Program-made: the position numbers and the translations under genes | The notes under the pieces: model-generated | What the model saw: the letters and a program-made list of their open reading frames with translations, nothing else | Told to the model about the DNA's origin: nothing | The model's database searches: none | Shown: one piece after another, positions 22,932 to 33,138 of the stretch | Position numbering within the stretch: position 1 is the first letter of the stretch | Layout: every line of letters starts with the position of its first letter | NCBI GenBank assembly: GCA_016794625.1 | Contig: JAEUGY010000004.1 | Span: 13,287-77,286 of the forward strand | DNA: 64,000 nt | Direction: 5' to 3' | DNA from: Opitutaceae bacterium | GTDB taxonomy: Bacteria > Verrucomicrobiota > Verrucomicrobiia > Opitutales > Opitutaceae

Positions 22932-24662
22932 ATGAACTCCCACCGCTCCGTCGCATCCCAGCGCGACTCGTATTCATCCCATCAATTCACCGTTTCCGCT
23001 CCGCGCGCCCTGTCCCTCGCCCGAACCGGCCTGGGCCTGCTCGCCGGCCTCCTCCTTGTCCCCGCGGGCGCAGGCGCGGCCACGCCGCCGGCCGGTCTGC
23101 CCGCACCGGTGTTCGAGCAGCTCGGCCGTCACCATCATCCGGTGACCACGCGTTCCCCGGAGGCCCAGCGGTACTTTGACCAGGGCCTGCTGCTGCTGTT
23201 CAACTTCAACCACCAGGAGGCCATCCGGTCGTTCCGCGCCGCCGCCCAACTGGATCCTGACTGCGTCATGGCGTACTGGGGCGAGGCGTTCGCCTACGGA
23301 CCCCACGTCAACGCACCCATGTTCGACGAAGCCATCGCCCCGGCCTGGGCCGCCTTGCAGGCCGGCCTGGCACGGCGGGCGCTCGGCAGCCCGCGGGAGA
23401 GGGACTACCTGGATGCGCTCGCCCGGCGCTACGTCGCGCCCGGTCAATCGCACGACCGCGCGGCCCTCAACCAGGCCTTCGCGGACGCCATGCGGGGCGT
23501 GGCGGAGGCGCATCCGGATGATGCCGATGCCACCGTCTTCTTCGTCGACGCCGTGATGAATACCACGCCTTGGGACTACTGGCAGCCCAACCGCACGGAC
23601 CCGAAGCCGGTCATCGCCGACGCACTGCGCCGCATTGATGCCGTGCTCTCCCGACAGCCGGACCATCCCGGTGCCAACCACCTCAACATCCACCTGGTCG
23701 AGGCCGGTCCCGACCCCGCGCGCGGTCTGCCCAGCGCGTCACGACTCCGTCGTTACGCGCCCGCCGCCGGGCACCTCGTGCACATGCCTTCGCACATCTA
23801 CATCCGCGTCGGCCAGTATCAGGACGCGATCGAGGCCAATCAGGAAGCCGCGCGGGCGGACCGCCAGTACATCAGTGCCTGCCGCGTCCAGGGCTTCTAC
23901 CCCGGCGTGTACTACCCGCACAATCTGCACTTCCTCTGGTTCGCCCACCTCTTCCAGGGCCAGGCGCAGGCCAGCCTCGACGCCGCCCACCAGGTCGCCT
24001 CCTACGCCCTGACGCCGCTCTGCGGCACGCCGGTGTTGGAAAAGCCGCGCTTCACGTGGCTCCCGCTGGTGACCCAGCTTCGGTTCGGCCGCTGGGACAC
24101 CGTGCTGTCGCAGCCGGAGCCGCCCGCCGACCAGCCGTTCGACCGTGCGATCTGGCGCTACGCCCGCGCCCGCTCCCTAGGAGCGCGGGGCGACGCCGCC
24201 GCGGCCCAGCGCGAGGTCGACGCCTTGGAGAAGCTGGCCGCGTCGGCGGACGTCAAGGCCGTGGACAATCCCGCGTTTCCCGCGTCACCCACCCTGGAGG
24301 TCGCCCGACACCTGGCGCGCGCCAGCGTTGCGCAAGCCCGAGGGGACCGGGACGGTGAGATCGCACACCTGCGGGCGGCCGTCGCGGCAGAACAAGCCCT
24401 GCCCTACATGGAACCCTCCTTCTGGTGGTATCCCACGCGTCAATCCCTCGCCGCCGCGCTCGCCCGGGCGGGCCGGTGGACCGAGGCGGAACAGGAATTC
24501 CGCCGCGACTTGGTGGAGTTTCCCCGCAACGGCTGGTCGCTCTTCGGTTTGCTGCACTGCCTGCGCTCGCAGAAGAAAACCGACGCCGCCCGCCTGGTGG
24601 AGGCCGAGTTCCAACGCGCCTGGTCCCACTCCGATGTGAAGCTCCAGCTGGAATGGCTCTAG
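22932..24662 (+). CDS. TPR-like repeat protein, probably exported
   Basis: ATG at 22932 within ORF 22836-24662. A hydrophobic signal-like segment is LGLLAGLLLVPAGAGA. The protein is helical-repeat-rich, with motifs such as YFDQGLLLLFNFNHQEAIRSF. Confidence 0.65.
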   Translation: MNSHRSVASQRDSYSSHQFTVSAPRALSLARTGLGLLAGLLLVPAGAGAATPPAGLPAPVFEQLGRHHHPVTTRSPEAQRYFDQGLLLLFNFNHQEAIRSFRAAAQLDPDCVMAYWGEAFAYGPHVNAPMFDEAIAPAWAALQAGLARRALGSPRERDYLDALARRYVAPGQSHDRAALNQAFADAMRGVAEAHPDDADATVFFVDAVMNTTPWDYWQPNRTDPKPVIADALRRIDAVLSRQPDHPGANHLNIHLVEAGPDPARGLPSASRLRRYAPAAGHLVHMPSHIYIRVGQYQDAIEANQEAARADRQYISACRVQGFYPGVYYPHNLHFLWFAHLFQGQAQASLDAAHQVASYALTPLCGTPVLEKPRFTWLPLVTQLRFGRWDTVLSQPEPPADQPFDRAIWRYARARSLGARGDAAAAQREVDALEKLAASADVKAVDNPAFPASPTLEVARHLARASVAQARGDRDGEIAHLRAAVAAEQALPYMEPSFWWYPTRQSLAAALARAGRWTEAEQEFRRDLVEFPRNGWSLFGLLHCLRSQKKTDAARLVEAEFQRAWSHSDVKLQLEWL

Positions 24663-24675
24663 TCCCCCGCGCCCC

Positions 24676-24710
24676 GGAGCGAGTGTCATCCCGCCGATGA
24701 CACTCGCTCC
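24676..24710 (+). terminator. Perfect 15-bp stem / 5-nt loop hairpin just after the TPR gene stop
   Basis: GGAGCGAGTGTCATC ccgcc GATGACACTCGCTCC begins 14 nt after the stop at 24662. There is no U-tract. Confidence 0.5.
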
Positions 24711-24930
24711 AGGGGCACCCGCGGTTTCCGCTCCAACCGGCCGGGCCTTTCCCGGTCAGGGCCCCGGTCGCCGGGGATCCCGAAACGCCGGCTCCCTGCG
24801 GCAGGCAAGACGGTCCGCGTGGCCAAAATTGTCACTCGGTCGGCCGGGGCGGCACCGGACAGCCACCGCGCTTCTCCGGGCACGGGCCCCGTTTGGCGTC
24901 CCACCAAATAATGCCATCACGCAGCAATGG

Positions 24931-24975
24931 AGTCTTATCTAATTCTAAAATAACATTTTAAGAACTTGTTTCGTT
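24931..24975 (+). promoter_or_regulatory. AT-rich island upstream of the transglutaminase operon (candidate promoter/UP region)
   Basis: agtcttatctaattctaaaataacattttaagaacttgtttcgtt is a sharp local drop in GC about 125-165 nt upstream of the 25098 start. I could not pin down convincing -35/-10 hexamers. Confidence 0.3.
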
Positions 24976-25097
24976 CACCCCTGGAGAGGAGCCGTCCTTT
25001 CGTTGACGATCAGCGATGAATTTCTTTCACACGAAGCGATCGCCATTGGGGTTGGTGGCGCGGGATTCGCTACGGTAAGACAGCCCACCTCTGTCTC

Positions 25098-28000
25098 ATG
25101 GCCATCCACGCCGCTCTCCATCACAAGACCGCATACCGTTACGACCGCCCGGTCGGACTTGGCCCCCAGGTGGTACGCCTGCGGCCGGCTCCGCATTGCC
25201 GGACGCCGATCGTCTCGTACTCGCTGCGGGTGTTTCCCGAGCAGCACTTCATCAACTGGCAGCAGGACCCACACGGGAACTACCAGGCGCGCCTGGTCTT
25301 TCCCGAAAAGACGCGCGAGTTCTCGATCGAGGTCGACGTGGTGGCGGAGATGGCGGTCTACAATCCATTCGATTTCTTTCTCGAGGCCTCGGCCAACCAG
25401 TATCCGTTTTCGTACGAAACGGTCACGGCCGAGGAGCTCGCCCCTTACCTGCGCAAGGATCCACTCAGTCCGCGGCTGGCCGCTCTGCTCGAATCCATCG
25501 ACCGCAAGCCCACGGCGACGATCGATTTCCTGGTCGCCCTCAACCAACGCCTGCAGAAGTCGGTCCAGTACCTGATCCGGCTCGAGCCCGGCGTGCAAAC
25601 CCCCGAGCAGACCCTGGAGCTGGGGTCGGGCTCCTGCCGCGATTCGGCGCTGCTGCTCGTGCAGGTGCTCCGCCACCTTGGCCTCGCGGCCCGGTTCGTA
25701 TCTGGGTATTTGATTCAGCTGCGGCCCGACCAGAAGTCGCTCGACGGGCCGTCGGGCGCGGAGTCGGATTTCACGGACCTGCATGCGTGGACCGAGGTCT
25801 TTCTGCCCGGCGCCGGCTGGGTCGGCTTCGATCCGACCTCGGGCCTGCTCGCCGGCGAAGGCCATCTCCCGCTGGCCTGCACGCCGGAGCCGTCCGGAGC
25901 GGCGCCGATCAGCGGCGGGGTCGAAAAGTGCGAGGTCACGTTCGACTTCTCCATGGAGGTGCGCCGGATCCACGAGTCTCCCCGCGTCACCCTGCCCTAC
26001 ACCGACGCCCAGTGGGACGCCATCAACGCCCTCGGCGCACGGATCGACCAGCGCCTTCGCGCGGGCGACGTCCGGTTGACCATGGGCGGTGAACCCACGT
26101 TCATTTCGATCGACGACATGGACGGCCCGGAGTGGAACACCGCCGCCGTCGGCCCGACCAAACGACGGCTGGCCGACCAGTTGATCAAGCGCCTCTGGCA
26201 GCATTACGGCGAAGGCGGCTTTATCCACTACGGTCAGGGCAAGTGGTATCCGGGGGAATCCCTGCCCCGTTGGGCGCTGACCTGCCTGTGGCGGCGCGAC
26301 GGCCAGGCGGTCTGGAAGGATCCCGCGCTGCTGGACAATTTCGACCGTGCCGCCGGGCTGAGTTCGTCCGATGCCGAACGATTCGCCCGCACCCTCGCGC
26401 GACGCCTGGAACTCGATCCACAGTGGCTGATGCCGGGATATGAGGACACCTGGTACTACCTTTGGAAGGAGCGCCGCCTGCCGGCCAACGTCGATCCGCT
26501 CAAGAGCCGGCTGCGGGAGGCGGAGGAACGGGCGCGACTGGCAAAGGTGTTTGAACAGGGGCTCGACCGCGTCGTCGGTTACGCCATCCCCATTGAACGC
26601 GCCATCCGGGGTCACCGGCTCGGCTGGACCTCCGGCCCCTGGTTTCTGCGACCGGGCACGCTCTTTCTCATTCCCGGCGACTCGCCCATGGGCTACCGGC
26701 TGCCGCTGGAGTCGCAGCCGTGGAGCGCGCCGGGCGACCAGCGATTCGGTATCGAGCCTGATCCTACGCTTGAGCTTCCGCCGCTGCCCGATCGCGACGC
26801 CCTCGCCCGGCAGTACTTCCGCGCCGTCGACCCGTCCTCCGGCCCGGGCGCGGCTTCGGCGCGCACACAGCCGATCGACTTGAGTGGATGGCCCTACGCC
26901 GCCACCCAGGACGGCCAGCCGGGCCAGCCCACGCTGCCCGCCCACTACCGGCCCCGGCCGGTTAGCCTGCCGGCGGCCGACACCGCGCCGGCGCCGCAGC
27001 AATCGGCGTCGTGGATCGTGCGCACCGCGCTCTGCGTCGAGGCGCGGGAAGGCCACCTCTTCGTCTTCATGCCACCGGTGGCGACCACCGAGGACTACCT
27101 CGACCTGCTTGCCGCCATCGAGGCCACCGCGGCCGAGTTGTCGCTGCCCGTGGTGATCGAGGGTTACCTGCCACCGCACGATGCCCGACTCAACTCCATC
27201 AAGGTCACGCCCGATCCCGGCGTGATCGAGGTCAACATCCACCCATCGTCCTCCTGGCCCGAACTCGTCGAGAAGACCGAGACCCTCTACGCCGAGGCCC
27301 GGCTTTGCCGCCTCGGCACGGAAAAGTTCATGCTCGACGGCCGGCACACCGGCACGGGCGGCGGGAATCACATCGTGGTCGGCGGGGCGACGCCGGGCGA
27401 CAGCCCGTTCCTCCGACGGCCACACCTGCTCAAGAGTTTGCTCGCCTACTGGCACAATCACCCGTCCTTGAGCTACCTGTTCTCGGGTCTGTTCATTGGA
27501 CCGACCTCGCAGGCTCCCCGCGTCGACGAAGCCAGAAACGACAGCCTCTATGAATTGGAAATCGCGTTCCGCGAGCTGGACCGGTTGACGGCGGACGGCG
27601 GACGGGTCACCCCGTGGCTCGTCGACCGCATTTTCCGCAATCTGTTGATCGACGTGTCCGGCAATACGCACCGGGCGGAGTTCTGCATCGACAAGCTGTA
27701 TTCGCCGGACTCCGCCAGCGGACGCCTCGGCCTGCTCGAACTGCGCGCCTTTGAAATGCCCCCGCATGCACGCATGAGCCTGGCGCAGCAACTCCTGCTG
27801 CGGGCGTTCATCGCGCACTTCTGGGAACACCCCTACGCACCGGAACGCCTGGTGCGCTGGGGCACCGATCTGCATGACCGGTTCATGCTGCCCCATTACG
27901 TCCGCGCCGACTTTGCGGATGTGATCCAGGACCTCAACGACTGGGGGCTGCCGTTCCGGCTGGAGTGGTTTGCGCCTCACCTTGAGTTCCGTTTCCCGGT

Positions 28001-28550
28001 CAATGGGCACGTCGCGTTTCGCGGCATGACCCTCGAAGTCCGGCACGCCCTCGAGCCCTGGCATGTCATGGGGGAGGAAGGAGCGGCGGGCGGAACGGTG
28101 CGCTTTGTCGACAGTTCCATTGAGCGAGTCCAGGTGTTGGTCACCGGTTGGGTGGGTGAACGGTACCAGGTCACCTGCAACGGCCGGCGCGTTCCGCTCC
28201 AGCCGACTGGCGTCAATGGCGAGTTCGTCGCGGCGGTGCGCTACCGCGCCTGGCAGCCGGCCTCCTGCCTCCACCCCACGATCGGGGTGGATTCGCCGCT
28301 GGTGTTTGATGTGGTGGACACGTGGAACGGCCGCTCCCTCGGCGGGTGCACCTACCACGTCGCCCACCCCGGTGGACGAAACTATGTGACCTTCCCGGTC
28401 AACGCCTATGAGGCCGAGTCCCGCCGCCTCGCCCGTTTCTTCCCCCACGGACACACCCCGGGCCACAGTTTGCCACCGGCCCCCCGCGACCTCGCGCCGG
28501 AGCTCCCGCACACCCTCGACCTCCGCGCCCCAAGCACCGTCCGCCGCTAG
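25098..28550 (+). CDS. Large transglutaminase-family protein (N-terminal Bact_transglu_N + transglutaminase core, C-terminal DUF2126-like region)
   Basis: 1150-aa ORF. The N-terminus is HHKTAYRYDRPVGLGPQVVRLRP. The catalytic core is GSGSCRDSALLLVQVLRHLGLAARFVSGYL ... DLHAWTEVFLPGAGWVGFDPTSG. A long conserved C-terminal extension follows. Confidence 0.88.
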   Translation: MAIHAALHHKTAYRYDRPVGLGPQVVRLRPAPHCRTPIVSYSLRVFPEQHFINWQQDPHGNYQARLVFPEKTREFSIEVDVVAEMAVYNPFDFFLEASANQYPFSYETVTAEELAPYLRKDPLSPRLAALLESIDRKPTATIDFLVALNQRLQKSVQYLIRLEPGVQTPEQTLELGSGSCRDSALLLVQVLRHLGLAARFVSGYLIQLRPDQKSLDGPSGAESDFTDLHAWTEVFLPGAGWVGFDPTSGLLAGEGHLPLACTPEPSGAAPISGGVEKCEVTFDFSMEVRRIHESPRVTLPYTDAQWDAINALGARIDQRLRAGDVRLTMGGEPTFISIDDMDGPEWNTAAVGPTKRRLADQLIKRLWQHYGEGGFIHYGQGKWYPGESLPRWALTCLWRRDGQAVWKDPALLDNFDRAAGLSSSDAERFARTLARRLELDPQWLMPGYEDTWYYLWKERRLPANVDPLKSRLREAEERARLAKVFEQGLDRVVGYAIPIERAIRGHRLGWTSGPWFLRPGTLFLIPGDSPMGYRLPLESQPWSAPGDQRFGIEPDPTLELPPLPDRDALARQYFRAVDPSSGPGAASARTQPIDLSGWPYAATQDGQPGQPTLPAHYRPRPVSLPAADTAPAPQQSASWIVRTALCVEAREGHLFVFMPPVATTEDYLDLLAAIEATAAELSLPVVIEGYLPPHDARLNSIKVTPDPGVIEVNIHPSSSWPELVEKTETLYAEARLCRLGTEKFMLDGRHTGTGGGNHIVVGGATPGDSPFLRRPHLLKSLLAYWHNHPSLSYLFSGLFIGPTSQAPRVDEARNDSLYELEIAFRELDRLTADGGRVTPWLVDRIFRNLLIDVSGNTHRAEFCIDKLYSPDSASGRLGLLELRAFEMPPHARMSLAQQLLLRAFIAHFWEHPYAPERLVRWGTDLHDRFMLPHYVRADFADVIQDLNDWGLPFRLEWFAPHLEFRFPVNGHVAFRGMTLEVRHALEPWHVMGEEGAAGGTVRFVDSSIERVQVLVTGWVGERYQVTCNGRRVPLQPTGVNGEFVAAVRYRAWQPASCLHPTIGVDSPLVFDVVDTWNGRSLGGCTYHVAHPGGRNYVTFPVNAYEAESRRLARFFPHGHTPGHSLPPAPRDLAPELPHTLDLRAPSTVRR

Positions 28551-28625
28551 CCGGCGGACGACCCGCGCATCGTCTCGCCAAGACTCCGGCCCACCCTCCG
28601 GCCGAGGCCCCGGCGCGACCAAATT

Positions 28626-28721
28626 AAGGGACAGGCCGAAAAAGAGCAATCGCCAGAGACTGCATTTAAGGGACAGGCAAAATAAAAGCAACCCCTAGAG
28701 ATTGCCCAAAAAGGGACAGGC
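28626..28721. repeat. AT-rich 42-43-bp tandem repeat (2.3 units) with core AAGGGACAGGC
   Basis: AAGGGACAGGC occurs at 28626, 28668 and 28711. Units 1 and 2 also share the downstream pattern aaaa-a-agcaa-c-cc-gaga-tgc. It lies in a 520-bp spacer inside an otherwise compact operon. Confidence 0.85.
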
Positions 28722-29071
28722 CGATTTCGCTCGAGCTCCGGACGGGGCCTCGATCCGCCAGGCTGGGCCGCGAACGGGGGCGAGAAGGCCGGGTGACGCC
28801 GCGCACCGACAGCGCCACGGAGCGGGATCAGAGGCTCGAGGTGCTTGAGGAAAAGGATCTGGAAAACTGCGGGGAAAGGCGGAGGATGGTGGCGGTTGAG
28901 ACTCCGGCTCCCTCCCGCACCCCCGCCTCCGTTGCAAATCGTCCGGCCCGGCTCTCCCGGTTGCATGCTTTCCGACCTGACCCTCCTCCCCGCCCTCACC
29001 GTCAACCGCGCGTCGAAAATTGACCGCGCAACGCCGGGCGGCTGGCACGGAGTCTGCAAACGCTACCGGCG

Positions 29072-31549
29072 ATGATTCCGCCCCCGGCCTCATTTTCTTC
29101 CCCGTTGCTTCGCGGTTATCGCGGACTCGCCGGGCGGCATGACGAAGCGGTGGCGGCCGACGGCACCGTGCGTCCCGCCTGGCAGGAATTTACCCGCTCC
29201 CTCGGCGACGACCCCCTGGCGACCCTGCGCGCGGCCAGCGACGCCGCCCGCCGGGCCATCGTGGAACAGGATGTCAGCCTCAATCTCTACTCCGCCGAAA
29301 GCTCCGATTCCATCGCCTGGCCCCTCGACGTGGTGCCGCTCCTGCTCGGCGGCGAAGACTGGAGCCGCCTTTCCGCCGGTCTCCGCCAGCGCGCCCGGTT
29401 GTTCAACCTTCTCCTGCAGGACCTCTACGGTCCGCAAAAGATGCTCCGCCAAGGGCTGCTGCCCGCGGCCCTCGGCATGGCCAACCCCCACTTCCTGCGC
29501 GCCTGCGCGGGACTGGGCAAGTCCCGCCAGCCCTTCCTCCACACCTACGCCGCGGACGTGGCGCGATCCCCCGACGGACGGTGGTGGGTCCTGCAGGACC
29601 GCCTCGATGCGCCGTCCGGGCTCGGGTACGCCCTGCAGAACCGCACCATCGTGCGCCAGGTCCTGCCGGGCGCCTTCCATCACGCGCCGGTCAGTCGGCT
29701 GTATCGGTTCATTCGCGACTTCCGTGAATCGCTCGACGTGCTCCAGGCGCAGAGCGAGTCATCGCGGCTGGTGCTGCTCACGCCCGGTCCCGCCAACGAA
29801 TCGTACTATGAACACGCCTACCTCGCGCGCTACCTGGGTTGCCCGCTGGTGGAGGGCGGCGACCTCACCACGCGGGACCGCCAGGTCTTTCTCCGGACGG
29901 TGGGTGGACTCCGCCAGGTAGGCGTGATCCTCCGACGGCTCGACTCCGAATTCTGCGATCCGCTCGAACTCGACCCCCGATCGCTGCTCGGCGTGCCCGG
30001 GCTGGTGCACGCCGCGCAATCGGGCCGCGTCGCCATCGCCAATCAGCTCGGCGGCCGGGCCCTCGAAAGCACGGCCCTCCTGTCGTTCCTGCCCTCGCTG
30101 TGCGAACACCTGCTCGACGAGGAGCTGCTTCTGCCCAGCGCGGCCACCTGGTGGGGCGGGCAGGTCTCGGCCCGGGACTACATCCTCGACCACCTCGGGG
30201 AACTGGTGATCAAGCCCACCTTCAGCGGCGCCAGCGCGCCCGCCACCGTCTACGCCGGCGGACTCGACCCCGCGCAGCGCGACGCCCTCGCCGCCCGCAT
30301 CGCAGCCGAGCCCGCCGCCTACTGCGGCCAGGAACGCGTTTTGCTCGGCACCACACCCGCCTGGGACCCCGACGCCGCGTCCCTGCGCCCGACTCCCTTC
30401 GTCGCGCGCCTTTATCTCTCCGCCCACGACGGGGAGTTTCAGGTGATGCCCGGAGGGCTCGGCCGCTTCAATCTTTCGGGCGAAGACGCCATGGTCTCCC
30501 TCCAGAGCGGCTCCGTATCCAAAGACGTCTGGGTGCTCTCCAGTCAGCACAATGACGATCCGCCCGCCCACTTCGCCGCCGGTGCCTCCGAACGGCGACA
30601 CGGGGCGGCCACGCCCAGCCGGCTGGCCGACAACCTGTTCTGGCTGGGCCGCTACCTCGAGCGCACGAGCCAGGTGACACGACTCCTAGCCAAGCTCCAT
30701 CCGTTGCTGCGCGATGAGATCGCGGTGCTCGATCCCGGCGTCGCAGAGGACACGGTGGCGTTCATCCTGCGGCTCCAGGATCTGCACCAGCCCGTCACCG
30801 GGTCCCTCGATGAGCGAGCGGACTTCGTCCGGCGGATCGCCGGAGACCGCACCCGCCCCGGCAGCCTTGCGGCCAACCTGCTCCGCCTCGCCCGCACCTT
30901 GGAAACGGCGAAGGTCCGGCTACCTCCCGAGGCCTGGCGCGTCGCCCGCCACCTGCGCCAGTTGAGCCAAGGCACTCCGGACTTCGCCGAGGTTCAGACC
31001 CAGCTTGCCCAGCTCGACGGACTCGCTGCGGAGACCATGGTCCATGACACCGGCTGGCGCTTCCTGGATCTGGGCCGCCGGATCGAGCGCGCGGTGCACA
31101 TTCTCCAGCTCATGCGCGCGTTGCTGGAACGGCCCACCGGCGACCCCGAGCCGACCGAGTTCCGGCTTCAGACCTGCCTGCACCTCGCGGACAGCCTGTT
31201 TACCTATCGCGCCAGCTTCAGCGGTGCCTTTCATCCCGCGAGCGTCATGGCTTGGATGCTGGCCGAGCCCGAGAACCCACGCGGCCTGCGCTTTCAGGCC
31301 GAACGGATCACCGAACACCTGGCCGCCCTGCCCGATGAACTCGCCCCCCGCCCCGTGGAGTTGCTGCGGACCACAGTCTTCCGATTGCTGAGCTCGGTCC
31401 GCCTGGCCGACATGCAAACCCTTGCCTCCACACCGGAACAAGCCTCCGAACTCTGGAACGATCAACTCGCTCTGCTCGCCGACCTGAACGACCGGTTGAC
31501 GCAGATCTACTTCGCCCACACCGAGCCTTCGGAGAACGGCGCCGGCTGA
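29072..31549 (+). CDS. Fusion of a circularly permuted type-2 ATP-grasp (COG2308-like) with an alpha-E domain (COG2307-like)
   Basis: 825-aa ORF. The N-terminal half has the layout of the circularly permuted ATP-grasp family. From about 30600 the alpha-E signature LADNLFWLGRYLERT begins, followed by WRFLDLGRRIER. Confidence 0.85.
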   Translation: MIPPPASFSSPLLRGYRGLAGRHDEAVAADGTVRPAWQEFTRSLGDDPLATLRAASDAARRAIVEQDVSLNLYSAESSDSIAWPLDVVPLLLGGEDWSRLSAGLRQRARLFNLLLQDLYGPQKMLRQGLLPAALGMANPHFLRACAGLGKSRQPFLHTYAADVARSPDGRWWVLQDRLDAPSGLGYALQNRTIVRQVLPGAFHHAPVSRLYRFIRDFRESLDVLQAQSESSRLVLLTPGPANESYYEHAYLARYLGCPLVEGGDLTTRDRQVFLRTVGGLRQVGVILRRLDSEFCDPLELDPRSLLGVPGLVHAAQSGRVAIANQLGGRALESTALLSFLPSLCEHLLDEELLLPSAATWWGGQVSARDYILDHLGELVIKPTFSGASAPATVYAGGLDPAQRDALAARIAAEPAAYCGQERVLLGTTPAWDPDAASLRPTPFVARLYLSAHDGEFQVMPGGLGRFNLSGEDAMVSLQSGSVSKDVWVLSSQHNDDPPAHFAAGASERRHGAATPSRLADNLFWLGRYLERTSQVTRLLAKLHPLLRDEIAVLDPGVAEDTVAFILRLQDLHQPVTGSLDERADFVRRIAGDRTRPGSLAANLLRLARTLETAKVRLPPEAWRVARHLRQLSQGTPDFAEVQTQLAQLDGLAAETMVHDTGWRFLDLGRRIERAVHILQLMRALLERPTGDPEPTEFRLQTCLHLADSLFTYRASFSGAFHPASVMAWMLAEPENPRGLRFQAERITEHLAALPDELAPRPVELLRTTVFRLLSSVRLADMQTLASTPEQASELWNDQLALLADLNDRLTQIYFAHTEPSENGAG

Positions 31550-31579
31550 ACACCGCCGCACATCGACGCCCGGGTCGTC

Positions 31580-32467
31580 ATGCCTGTCTATCGTATTCGC
31601 CACTCCACTCTCTACCGCCACGGCACCGCTGCCGCCATGGCCTGGCAGTCCTTGCGGCTGCAGCCCCGCCGCGAGGCCAACCAGGAGTGCCTCGAATTCG
31701 AACTGGAGCTCAATCCCCGGCCGGCCGACCTGTCCGTTCGCACCGACTACTTTGGCAACACCCAGCATGTCTTCACGGTCCGGGCCGTGCACCGGGAGTT
31801 CTCCATTCAGGCGCACAGCCTGGTGCGCCGCGATGAGCCGGCCCGTCCGGCACCCGACGCGGCACTCACCGCCGCGGCGACCTCCGACGCCATCGATCGC
31901 GAGGTGCTGCAGGGCGATTTCGCCCTCGAACAATACCGGCACCCCAGCCCGCTCGTCCCCAGCTTTCCCGCCGTCGGCAGCCTGACCGGCGTCGTGGATC
32001 CGGCGCTCCCGCTGCTGGAATGGATGGACGCCTTCGGCGCCGTGTTCTCCCGCACGTTTCGCTTCGACTCCACCGCCACGCTCGTCTCCACCCCGCTCGA
32101 GGAAGTCCTGCGGCTGCGACGCGGGGTCTGCCAGGATTTCGCCCATCTCTACATCGCGGGAGCGCGTTCCCTGGGACTCGCCGCGGCCTATGTCAGCGGA
32201 TACCTGCTGACCCAGCCTCCGCCCGGCCGGCCGCGCTTCGTGGGCGCCGATGCCATGCACGCCTGGGTTTCCATTCATGTGCCCGGAGCCGGCTGGGTCG
32301 ACTACGACCCCACCAACCGGTGTTTCGCCGGTTCCGGCCACCTCGTCGTGGCCCGCGGTCGCGACTACAGCGACGTCAGTCCCACCCGGGGCGTATTCAA
32401 TGGGGGCGGCGCCCAGACGCTGTACCTGGGTGTCACCGTCGAGCCCGAGGACGTAGCGGCCCCCTAA
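31580..32467 (+). CDS. Transglutaminase family protein (Bact_transglu_N + core)
   Basis: 295-aa ORF. The N-terminus is YRIRHSTLYRH. The Cys-His-Asp core is RGVCQDFAHLYIAGARSLGLAAAYVSGYL ... HAWVSIHVPGAGWVDYDPTN. Confidence 0.88.
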   Translation: MPVYRIRHSTLYRHGTAAAMAWQSLRLQPRREANQECLEFELELNPRPADLSVRTDYFGNTQHVFTVRAVHREFSIQAHSLVRRDEPARPAPDAALTAAATSDAIDREVLQGDFALEQYRHPSPLVPSFPAVGSLTGVVDPALPLLEWMDAFGAVFSRTFRFDSTATLVSTPLEEVLRLRRGVCQDFAHLYIAGARSLGLAAAYVSGYLLTQPPPGRPRFVGADAMHAWVSIHVPGAGWVDYDPTNRCFAGSGHLVVARGRDYSDVSPTRGVFNGGGAQTLYLGVTVEPEDVAAP

Positions 32468-33138
32468 ACCGGCGCCCTCGAGCCGCCTCTATCCACCGCT
32501 GCGCGCTTCGCGGGTGCCACGTGGCGCCAATGCAGGAAGATCTCCGCGAGGAGCAACGGCAAGACCCAGCACATCCAGCCGACGGCGGCATACTTGGTGC
32601 GTCCGAGACCGTTGAAGACATCAAGCTCCACCACGTATCGAAACGTGACAAAGCCGAACGTGACGATGTAGCTGCGGATCATCCAGTCGCGGTGGGCGTC
32701 GAATCGCCGGTTGCGAATCGCCACCAGCGCCATACCCAGCGTCAGCCACCAGGCGACCCCGAGGAAGAACAGGCTGAATCCGAAGTCGGGCAGGCTCGAG
32801 CGCACCGCAAGGACAAAGGCCGTTCCGCCGCCAGCGATGATCCCAAGCGCGTAGGCGTAACCCAAGGTTCGGTGGGCCCTCGGCCAGCGCAGCTTGAAGC
32901 CCGACCAAAATTGCACCGGCCCCAGGATCAGCGCGAGCGTCCCGCCGGCAATGTGCGCGACCAGCCAGAGGCGATTGGGCCAGTAGCGGCGATAACCCGC
33001 CTCGCTGTAGTTGGTCAGGTAGCGCACCGCGCTGTCCCACCAGAAATGGACCGCCACGCCCAGCAGCGCGACCACCACCATCAGGAGCACGATCGACGAC
33101 GGCGACATCGGCTTCGCGGGCCGGAGAGTTGTATCCAT
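32464..33138 (-). CDS. DUF2306-like polytopic membrane protein
   Basis: ATG at 33138 within ORF 32464-33336. It has five to six TM helices. Motifs are HIAGGTLALILGPVQFW, AHRTLGYAY and HRDWMIRSY. Confidence 0.65.
   Translation of the reverse strand: MDTTLRPAKPMSPSSIVLLMVVVALLGVAVHFWWDSAVRYLTNYSEAGYRRYWPNRLWLVAHIAGGTLALILGPVQFWSGFKLRWPRAHRTLGYAYALGIIAGGGTAFVLAVRSSLPDFGFSLFFLGVAWWLTLGMALVAIRNRRFDAHRDWMIRSYIVTFGFVTFRYVVELDVFNGLGRTKYAAVGWMCWVLPLLLAEIFLHWRHVAPAKRAAVDRGGSRAPV

Follow-up and report, generated by a model that had tools for sequence, protein, structure and literature searches.

Iyer and colleagues are said to have described, in 2009, a gene neighbourhood with a predicted role in peptide synthesis or protein modification. 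Here we analyse a three-gene cassette of this kind in a 64,000-nucleotide (nt) stretch of DNA from an Opitutaceae bacterium (contig JAEUGY010000004.1, positions 13,287 to 77,286; hereafter, the window). Its genes encode a transglutaminase-DUF2126 protein (P0001), a fused ATP-grasp/alpha-E protein (P0002) and a small transglutaminase (P0003), and the kinship with that neighbourhood, first proposed in a sequence-only reading, is supported by the domains that we recovered. The class ranks among the most conserved unexplained multi-enzyme systems of bacteria, with ~60% identity of the large protein across phyla; it is also found in pathogens and model Pseudomonas, and it appears to be tied to nitrogen limitation. 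We regard the locus, with good confidence, as an intact and ordinary copy of a widespread cassette of the Rv2566/Rv2567/Rv2569c type, in which two ligases and two thiol enzymes would build and trim a product under sigma-54 control. This copy is an ordinary member of a known system, and the question of what the cassette does is no more tractable here than in the Pseudomonas or Burkholderia copies. What it adds is an ancestral fused form, support for sigma-54 across phyla, and a lineage in which the ligase genes would be separate transcription units.

In Mycobacterium tuberculosis, we take Rv2567 to be a fused ATP-grasp/alpha-E protein and Rv2569c to be transglutaminase-like. The Rv2566/Rv2567/Rv2569c cluster (the 'Rv2566 family', PMC2588565) resembles the window cassette, judging by its description, in that a DUF2126 protein lies beside an ATP-grasp protein and a small partner gene. 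Rv2567 has been chosen as an ATP-binding-domain candidate (bioRxiv 10.64898/2026.04.15.718621), and a report on Rv2569c describes a serine protease of the cell wall that cuts E-cadherin and does not discuss a transglutaminase fold (PMC11081392). The E-cadherin role has no counterpart in a free-living member of the Opitutaceae. Further differences are that the window cassette belongs to another phylum and that its first junction is 521 base pairs (bp) long, with a promoter-like element of its own.

The Anbu operon, reportedly treated by Valas and Bourne in 2008, is a second relative. It comprises COG2308, COG2307, COG1305 and Anbu (PMC6376114, PMC5666114) and shares with the window cassette the circularly permuted (CP) ATP-grasp, alpha-E and Bact_transglu_N/Transglut_core families. 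It is likewise an amide-bond system without an assigned function, and its induction by nitrogen starvation has been reported. The window cassette differs in its fused ATP-grasp/alpha-E protein, in the predicted second ligase DUF2126, in the separate clade of its ATP-grasp domain, and in a genome that lacks Anbu. That no Anbu gene is present, as noted at the outset for the locus, holds genome-wide: a PF00227 search for proteasome-family (Anbu/HslV) genes gave no match at E <= 0.01 in the whole 95%-complete genome, and the family was detected in 10 of 14 control genomes.

In Burkholderia cenocepacia H111, a four-gene 'transglutaminase-like domain' cluster with a 'large protein' (I35_5080-5083; BCAM1235/1236) ranks with the genes that depend most strongly on NtrC and sigma-54 under nitrogen limitation (PMC5491218); I35_5083 is likened here to the DUF2126 protein from its description. 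At the level of single domains, PDB entry 3N6X ('putative glutathionylspermidine synthase') is a stand-alone CP ATP-grasp protein like part of P0002, with no alpha-E and no assigned reaction. For the glutamine synthetase (GS)/GCS2/PafA ligases, the predicted likeness is the formation of an acyl-phosphate and then an amide, the similarity to GS being weakly supported here. Gamma-glutamylation of the PuuA/PuuD type, which is tied to nitrogen status, pairs a GS-like ligase with a thiol amidohydrolase. The hydrolase of the cassette is of the papain-fold, transglutaminase-like kind, whereas PuuD is of the class-I amidotransferase type, and no oxidoreductases or transporters are conserved beside the cassette in the 80 loci surveyed below.

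The ATP-grasp/alpha-E fusion is ancestral to the DUF2126-linked copies

The sequence-only reading held that ATP-grasp and alpha-E are usually separate genes and that their fusion is specific to this locus, and it named a sequencing frameshift that joins two genes as a possible source of the 825-amino-acid (aa) protein. We scored 8000 candidate homologues of P0002, of which 3819 were significant. The best 120 of the 3819 were inspected; they are 813-854 aa long, and all carry both domains. An independent assembly encodes an 825-aa protein that is 94% identical to P0002. For P0001, relatives were collected with a degenerate-pattern scan, one genome per species; at least 599 were found, and 80 loci were kept. 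The order transglutaminase-DUF2126, fused ATP-grasp/alpha-E and, usually, small transglutaminase was seen with tight junctions in 69 of the 80, from at least six phyla, and at least seven of the 11 loci without the full order end at contig edges. A separate ATP-grasp and alpha-E pair adjoins the cassette in ~35 of the 80 loci. When the flanking open reading frames (ORFs) of these loci were clustered, this solo pair, which recurs across phyla, proved to be the one conserved neighbour, and no conserved small ORF emerged.

Similar results were obtained with a sample of 151 genomes of the phylum. Alpha-E is present in 38 of them, in ~62 copies, of which ~26 lie in frames of at least 800 aa (fused) and ~36 stand alone. 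DUF2126 occurs in 20 of the 151, and a fused copy is also found in every one of these (20/20). In a tree of the ATP-grasp domain, the DUF2126-linked fused proteins form one clade, with a Shimodaira-Hasegawa-like approximate likelihood-ratio test (SH-aLRT) support of 100, and the solo proteins stand apart, again with a support of 100; no more than two 'solo' rows fall within the fused clade, both of them ORFs ended by contig edges. P0002 groups with Opitutaceae and other Verrucomicrobiota.

Because the fused form is found in 69 of 80 loci and as a single clade with full support, the fusion is ancient rather than a frameshift artefact, and the fused architecture is ancestral to all DUF2126-linked copies. 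Next to DUF2126 genes, then, fusion is the rule, and with ~26 of ~62 alpha-E copies fused, two of them in this genome, and a monophyletic origin, it is not peculiar to the locus. Nothing was found to favour a sequencing or assembly frameshift, apart from the fact that stand-alone ATP-grasp and alpha-E genes exist, one such pair lying elsewhere in this genome. The independent 94%-identical protein of the same length, the thousands of homologues with the best 120 all fused, the deep clade of their own and a linker region that is in frame and free of stops in 68 of 68 aligned fused proteins all speak against it. We have rejected this explanation, its probability being vanishingly small.

The genome holds three paralogous sets, the window cassette included. 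On contig C4 (locus L007, 7787-10725), an ATP-grasp gene (497 aa) and an alpha-E gene (328 aa) are separated by ~460 bp and have no adjoining transglutaminase. Contig C68 (L006, 8654-11299) carries a second, divergent fused ATP-grasp/alpha-E gene (881 aa), and contig C113 (L018, 5214-8299) carries, unlinked from it, a transglutaminase and a short DUF2126 gene (742 aa). In two other genomes (L016, L017), the fused gene, two transglutaminase genes and the short DUF2126 gene make up one operon.

Predicted ligases and transglutaminase-like enzymes

The three co-directional ORFs described earlier were recovered exactly, in position and in length, and all the motifs quoted from their products are present (Table 1). 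Pfam found every domain that had been named, at very strong E-values; both matches in P0002 exceed the Pfam cut-off. NCBIfam has no model matching P0001, P0002 or P0003, and a signal peptide-like N-terminus is absent from all cassette proteins. The closest named homologues are from Opitutaceae (Opitutus sp., Opitutaceae bacterium TAV3/TAV5 and Geminisphaera colitermitum). Gene order and direction match the conserved form of the cassette. The cassette encodes two unrelated predicted ATP-dependent ligases and two papain-fold transglutaminase-like enzymes with complete triads.

Table 1. Positions of cassette genes, domains, residues and junction elements in the window
Feature	Position	Strand	Basis or remark
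Sigma-54-like -24/-12 element TGGCGCGGGATTCGCT	25056..25071	+	2 mismatches, GG-N10-GC intact
P0001, 1150 aa	25098..28550	+	ORF and Pfam
Bact_transglu_N of P0001	25116-25349 (aa 7-84)	+	Pfam 7e-26
Transglut_core of P0001	25482-25835 (aa 129-246)	+	Pfam 7.5e-19
DUF2126 predicted amidoligase module of P0001, beta-sandwich at its end	25923-28526 (aa 276-1143)	+	Pfam E=0, 1345 bits
Non-coding junction P0001-P0002, 521 bp	28551..29071	.	Atypical length, little conservation
AT-rich 42-bp tandem repeat, 2.3 units, core AAGGGACAGGC x3	28624..28721	.	Repeat search
Sigma-54-like -24/-12 element TGGCACGGAGTCTGCA	29043..29058	+	1 mismatch
P0002, 825 aa	29072..31549	+	ORF and Pfam
CP_ATPgrasp_2 (circularly permuted type-2) of P0002	29336-30469 (aa 89-466)	+	Pfam 9.8e-132, 439.8 bits
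Q316 of P0002 (Arg in >=95% of other fused proteins)	30017-30019	+	Alignment
R330 of P0002, clade-specific Arg	30059-30061	+	Alignment
Alpha-E of P0002, motifs WLGRYLER and GWRFLDLGRRIER	30614-31513 (aa 515-814)	+	Pfam 1.3e-58, 199.5 bits
P0003, 295 aa	31580..32467	+	ORF and Pfam; start 30 nt past P0002
Bact_transglu_N and Transglut_core of P0003	within 31580..32467	+	Pfam 1.3e-21 and 4.3e-17

P0001 shares 59-82% identity over ~1143 aa with 80 homologues from Verrucomicrobiota, Pseudomonas, Burkholderiales, Acidobacteriota, Planctomycetota and Desulfobacterota. Its catalytic triad (C180/H229/D245) is complete, and the three columns are invariant in 11 phylum-wide sequences. The match to DUF2126 spans the whole profile (positions 1-826 of 826). 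What had been described as a long C-terminal extension of the 1150-aa protein is indeed there; the description undersells it, as this part is a second ATP-dependent carboxylate-amine ligase by prediction (PMC2588565). With the C-terminal part of P0001 predicted to be a second ligase, the cassette would have two ligases, not one.

Several invariant motifs that look by eye like the metal- and phosphate-binding motifs of GS, and follow one another as in GS, can be seen in DUF2126 (GGEPTF, IEVN, GGGNH and THRAEF...LELRAFEMPPH). The Pfam label of DUF2126 is likewise that of a carboxylate-amine ligase. An AlphaFold2 model of residues 276-1150, built from an alignment of 44 sequences, reached a predicted local distance difference test (pLDDT) score of 75. 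When this model was searched with Foldseek, glutamine synthetases provided the best match and at least 10 of the top 50, over 219-304 columns, with E values of 0.15-1.2, a best probability of 0.82 and template-modelling (TM) scores below 0.3; the C-terminal part gave matches to immunoglobulin-like beta-sandwiches. Profile analysis of Rv2566 placed DUF2126 among the carboxylate-amine ligases of the glutamine-synthetase/GCS2/PafA superfamily (PMC2588565).

Other results weigh against this assignment. A PDB sequence-profile search with DUF2126 came back empty, hhalign of DUF2126 against three glutamine synthetase sequences was negative, and relaxed Pfam scans of DUF2126 pieces returned nothing beyond DUF2126 itself. 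The Foldseek matches to glutamine synthetases all have E > 0.1 and low TM-scores, and the pLDDT of the model is just 75. The idea that the module is a GS-like carboxylate-amine ligase is thus weakly supported by the model, and its support comes mainly from the published analysis (PMC2588565).

One observation concerns glutamine synthetase in the genome at large. The sole match to Gln-synt_C (PF00120) in this 95%-complete assembly is a weak one (contig C104, 14893-15585; E 1.2e-12), in a 368-aa frame. The same is true of most same-genus genomes, and a typical type I glutamine synthetase was not seen.

For the first half of P0002, residues 23-490 align with residues 10-473 of PDB 3N6X at 5.5e-71. 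The alpha-E half was modelled as a confident 15-helix bundle (pLDDT 89.6), in which the conserved residues are mostly Arg and Glu (SR, WLGRY.ER, GW.F, GRR.ER). Comparison of this model with PDB structures found no significant analogue (best E 0.076; CHAD-domain matches with a probability of ~0.15), and PDB sequence-level searches with DUF2126 and alpha-E linked neither to a solved structure. P0003 has a complete triad (C184/H227/D243) in columns that are at least 95% conserved, and PDB 3ISR, which is thought of as a cysteine protease only putatively, matches it weakly. A P0003 homologue occupies the equivalent place in ~65 of the 80 loci.

P0002 retains every column that is at least 95% conserved among 68 fused homologues, bar R316, which is Gln here. 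Position 316 lies immediately upstream of the conserved Asn324. Gln or His is found at this position in 84 of the 86 retrieved Opitutaceae-clade homologues whose flanking motif was matchable. In the aligned Opitutaceae clade, an Arg has been gained 14 residues downstream, where GSG has become GGR (ANALGSG to ANQLGGR). An active-site arginine may have been relocated from 316 to 330 in this clade. Since the clade keeps 56-94% identity over 825 aa, we read R316Q/H as a compensated change and not as decay, judging from the alignment.

The first junction and its sigma-54-like elements

A 520-bp spacer had been taken to break the operon. The spacer is real and unusual, and it is better read as a sign of two candidate sigma-54-type transcription units in this lineage. 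The same junction in 66 other loci has a median length of ~60 bp; 59 of the 66 measure 271 bp or less, and the remaining seven, of at least 986 nt, contain unrelated inserted genes. It spans ~245 bp in two same-genus genomes and in the 94%-identity relative, and the spacer of the relative can hardly be aligned with that of the window except directly before the P0002 ATG. On this comparison, the 521-bp spacer is a lineage-specific loosening of the junction. The second junction of the cassette, by comparison, is 30 nt long.

Part of the added length is an AT-rich tandem repeat with a 42-bp unit, each unit having a short hairpin. About 10 weaker copies lie elsewhere in the genome (contigs C112, C51, C49, C73, C8, C5, C28 and C74), which is why we assign the repeat to a dispersed family, and it is missing from the ~245-bp spacers of the genus relatives, which is why we read it as inserted. 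In these respects it looks like a small dispersed element of the repetitive extragenic palindrome (REP) or miniature inverted-repeat transposable element (MITE) kind. An Rfam search of the spacer gave no match at E <= 1. A hidden gene between 28551 and 29071 was considered and rejected, as the ORFs there are of low quality and typical of antisense or GC-rich noise.

Other junctions have received genes. In three Verrucomicrobiota relatives (L001 6957-7871, L021 10607-11611 and L025 10485-11543), the junction holds a gene without a family, here called P0124-like, for a protein of 304-352 aa. Its N-terminal domain, of ~250 aa, is conserved, and its long tail is rich in Lys, Ala and Pro and resembles histone H1. 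P0124 matches nothing in Pfam, and neither this genome nor any of 151 genomes sampled from the phylum encodes it; a tblastn search of the window spacer for a P0124-like gene found no remnant. Given this absence, the gene is a sporadic insertion, and we rejected a P0124-like protein as a fourth component of the cassette. Unrelated genes have entered the junction in other phyla. In one Pelomonas (L092 10702-11889), it contains a small ORF and a 294-aa ORF that looks alpha/beta-hydrolase-like by eye, and in one Aquabacterium (L039 12282-14246) a gene for a hybrid PAS histidine kinase/response regulator. Judging from such cases, insertion at this junction seems to be recurrent.

We scored sigma-54 motifs as TGGCAC-N5-TTGCW. 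The upstream element, TGGCGCGGGATTCGCT, has its first base 42 nt ahead of the ATG of P0001. The second, TGGCACGGAGTCTGCA, ends 13 nt before the P0002 ATG; it is one of two one-mismatch matches in 64 kb, and outside its region no block of the spacer is well conserved. L002 has TGGCACAAACCCTGCG and L001 has TGGCACAACCTTTGCG, each equally far from the ATG. Of 91 loci, 48 have a sigma-54-like element in the 250 nt ahead of the DUF2126 gene, at -27 to -103 with one exception; the count is 11 in the reverse-complement control and 5 in the intragenic control. Most loci without an element have a solo ATP-grasp/alpha-E pair upstream. The cassettes with such elements include those of Burkholderia, Caballeronia and Paraburkholderia (L028, L046, L085, L100). 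The genome contains an rpoN gene, and a sigma-70 promoter scan of 24500-33000 found none. Bact_transglu_N, alpha-E and CP ATP-grasp have been found to vary together with domains of urea metabolism in marine metagenomes (PMC3597751).

Taken with the regulation of the B. cenocepacia cluster, these motif data suggest that the cassette is probably expressed from sigma-54-type promoters as part of a nitrogen-limitation response. In this lineage, we infer, the cassette has been split into two sigma-54-type units by the loosened, repeat-invaded junction. Some observations tell against such promoters. The elements are motif matches, and the window as a whole shows no enrichment of the motif (30 found versus 25 expected). 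In the close relatives L001, L019 and L021, the upstream element is matched only if three mismatches are allowed. The element before P0002 would put the start of transcription ~2-4 nt before the annotated ATG, and therefore a leaderless mRNA or a downstream start would have to be assumed.

A strongly AT-rich stretch lies at 24880-24990 (aataatgcc...taattctaaaataacattttaagaac), ~110-220 nt upstream of the first sigma-54-like element. It is in this stretch that a site for an enhancer-binding protein or for integration host factor would be expected.

The long junction also bears on whether the locus is decaying or altered, with the operon broken by an insertion, the ATP-grasp domain stripped of a catalytic arginine and the genes left as relics. 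A 521-bp junction where the median is ~60 bp, its invasion by a dispersed repeat, the change of R316 to Gln and DNA-level matches to the junction flanks in only three of 14 same-genus genomes would all fit decay. The three ORFs, however, are full-length, free of stops and frameshifts, and match their profiles end to end; both Cys-His-Asp triads and all other residues conserved at 95% or more are kept. Gln or His at 316 is shared by a clade of at least 85 homologues and accompanied by the Arg 14 residues downstream, so the change looks compensated under purifying selection, and the downstream unit has a conserved promoter-like element of its own. We consider decay very unlikely and an intact cassette the better account.

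Proposed reactions and candidate substrates

If the superfamily assignments hold, both ligases would convert a carboxylate to its activated form, an acyl-phosphate, and couple this with an amine, giving an amide bond of the gamma-glutamyl or isopeptide type. By way of a thioester intermediate, the thiol enzymes would hydrolyse these bonds or transfer them. Together, ligases and thiol enzymes could form a build-and-trim cycle that acts on one conserved substrate in the cytoplasm during nitrogen limitation.

That no substrate is known, as the sequence-only reading had it, agrees with the literature, which has only ATP hydrolysis and one negative result to offer: the ATP-grasp protein of the Yersinia Anbu operon releases phosphate from ATP (PMC6376114), and Rv2567 and Rv2411c do not make GABA (gamma-aminobutyric acid)-trehalose (bioRxiv 10.64898/2026.04.15.718621). 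The substrate could well be a small nitrogenous compound or a short peptide, a view we hold tentatively; a protein tag seems rather doubtful, and the rest of our expectation goes to neither of these or to something unknown. We lean to a small substrate because there is no tag-like small ORF, no proteasome-like partner in the genome, and the cassette would keep the company of a nitrogen-scavenging regulon.

Protein tagging akin to pupylation deserves consideration all the same. Here DUF2126, the ATP-grasp protein or both would attach an amino acid or peptide to protein side chains, the papain-fold enzymes would remove or process the tag, and the tagged proteins would be turned over, their amino acids being recycled in nitrogen starvation. 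DUF2126 shares a superfamily with the Pup ligase PafA and with GCS2 (PMC2588565), and tagging has been proposed for the sister Anbu operon, which couples ATP-grasp, alpha-E and transglutaminase to a proteasome-like particle (PMC6376114, PMC5666114). Moreover, identity of ~60% between phyla, kept over 1100 aa, points to a macromolecular partner that is itself highly conserved. On the other side, the 80 loci contain no conserved small tag gene or neighbour, in agreement with PMC2588565, and the genome has no gene of the proteasome, Anbu or HslV family. The proteins of the Yersinia Anbu operon gave no stable complexes and no peptidase activity (PMC6376114). The substrate-like candidate, P0124 with its Lys/Ala-rich tail, is found inside the cassette in a few relatives but is missing from this genome and from the 151 genomes sampled from the phylum. 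We therefore judge tagging unlikely, though less so than decay of the locus.

Several considerations count against the build-and-trim scheme on a small substrate. No member has an assigned product, substrate or phenotype, and the chemistry of the scheme is inferred from superfamily membership. Proteins are the usual targets of transglutaminase-like (papain-fold) and PafA-like folds, a point in favour of tagging. Loss of the conserved R316 could alter catalysis by P0002. For alpha-E, which has no PDB analogue, a role in substrate recognition or in regulation of the ligase is a guess.

A more far-reaching possibility is that the Opitutaceae cassette has been rewired, with two sigma-54 units, a relocated Arg316 and a junction that is an insertion hot spot, and that the tail protein of the P0124 family, found in sister lineages, is a physiological acceptor substrate. 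We think this highly improbable. If true, P0124 as acceptor would be the first experimental handle on what the ligases modify.

With regard to genomic setting, the cassette lies in DNA of high G+C content (~65-70% across the window). Upstream of it are a gene for a tetratricopeptide repeat (TPR) protein and a 435-bp intergenic region. The downstream border is formed by a convergent DUF2306 gene and a type III polyketide synthase cluster.

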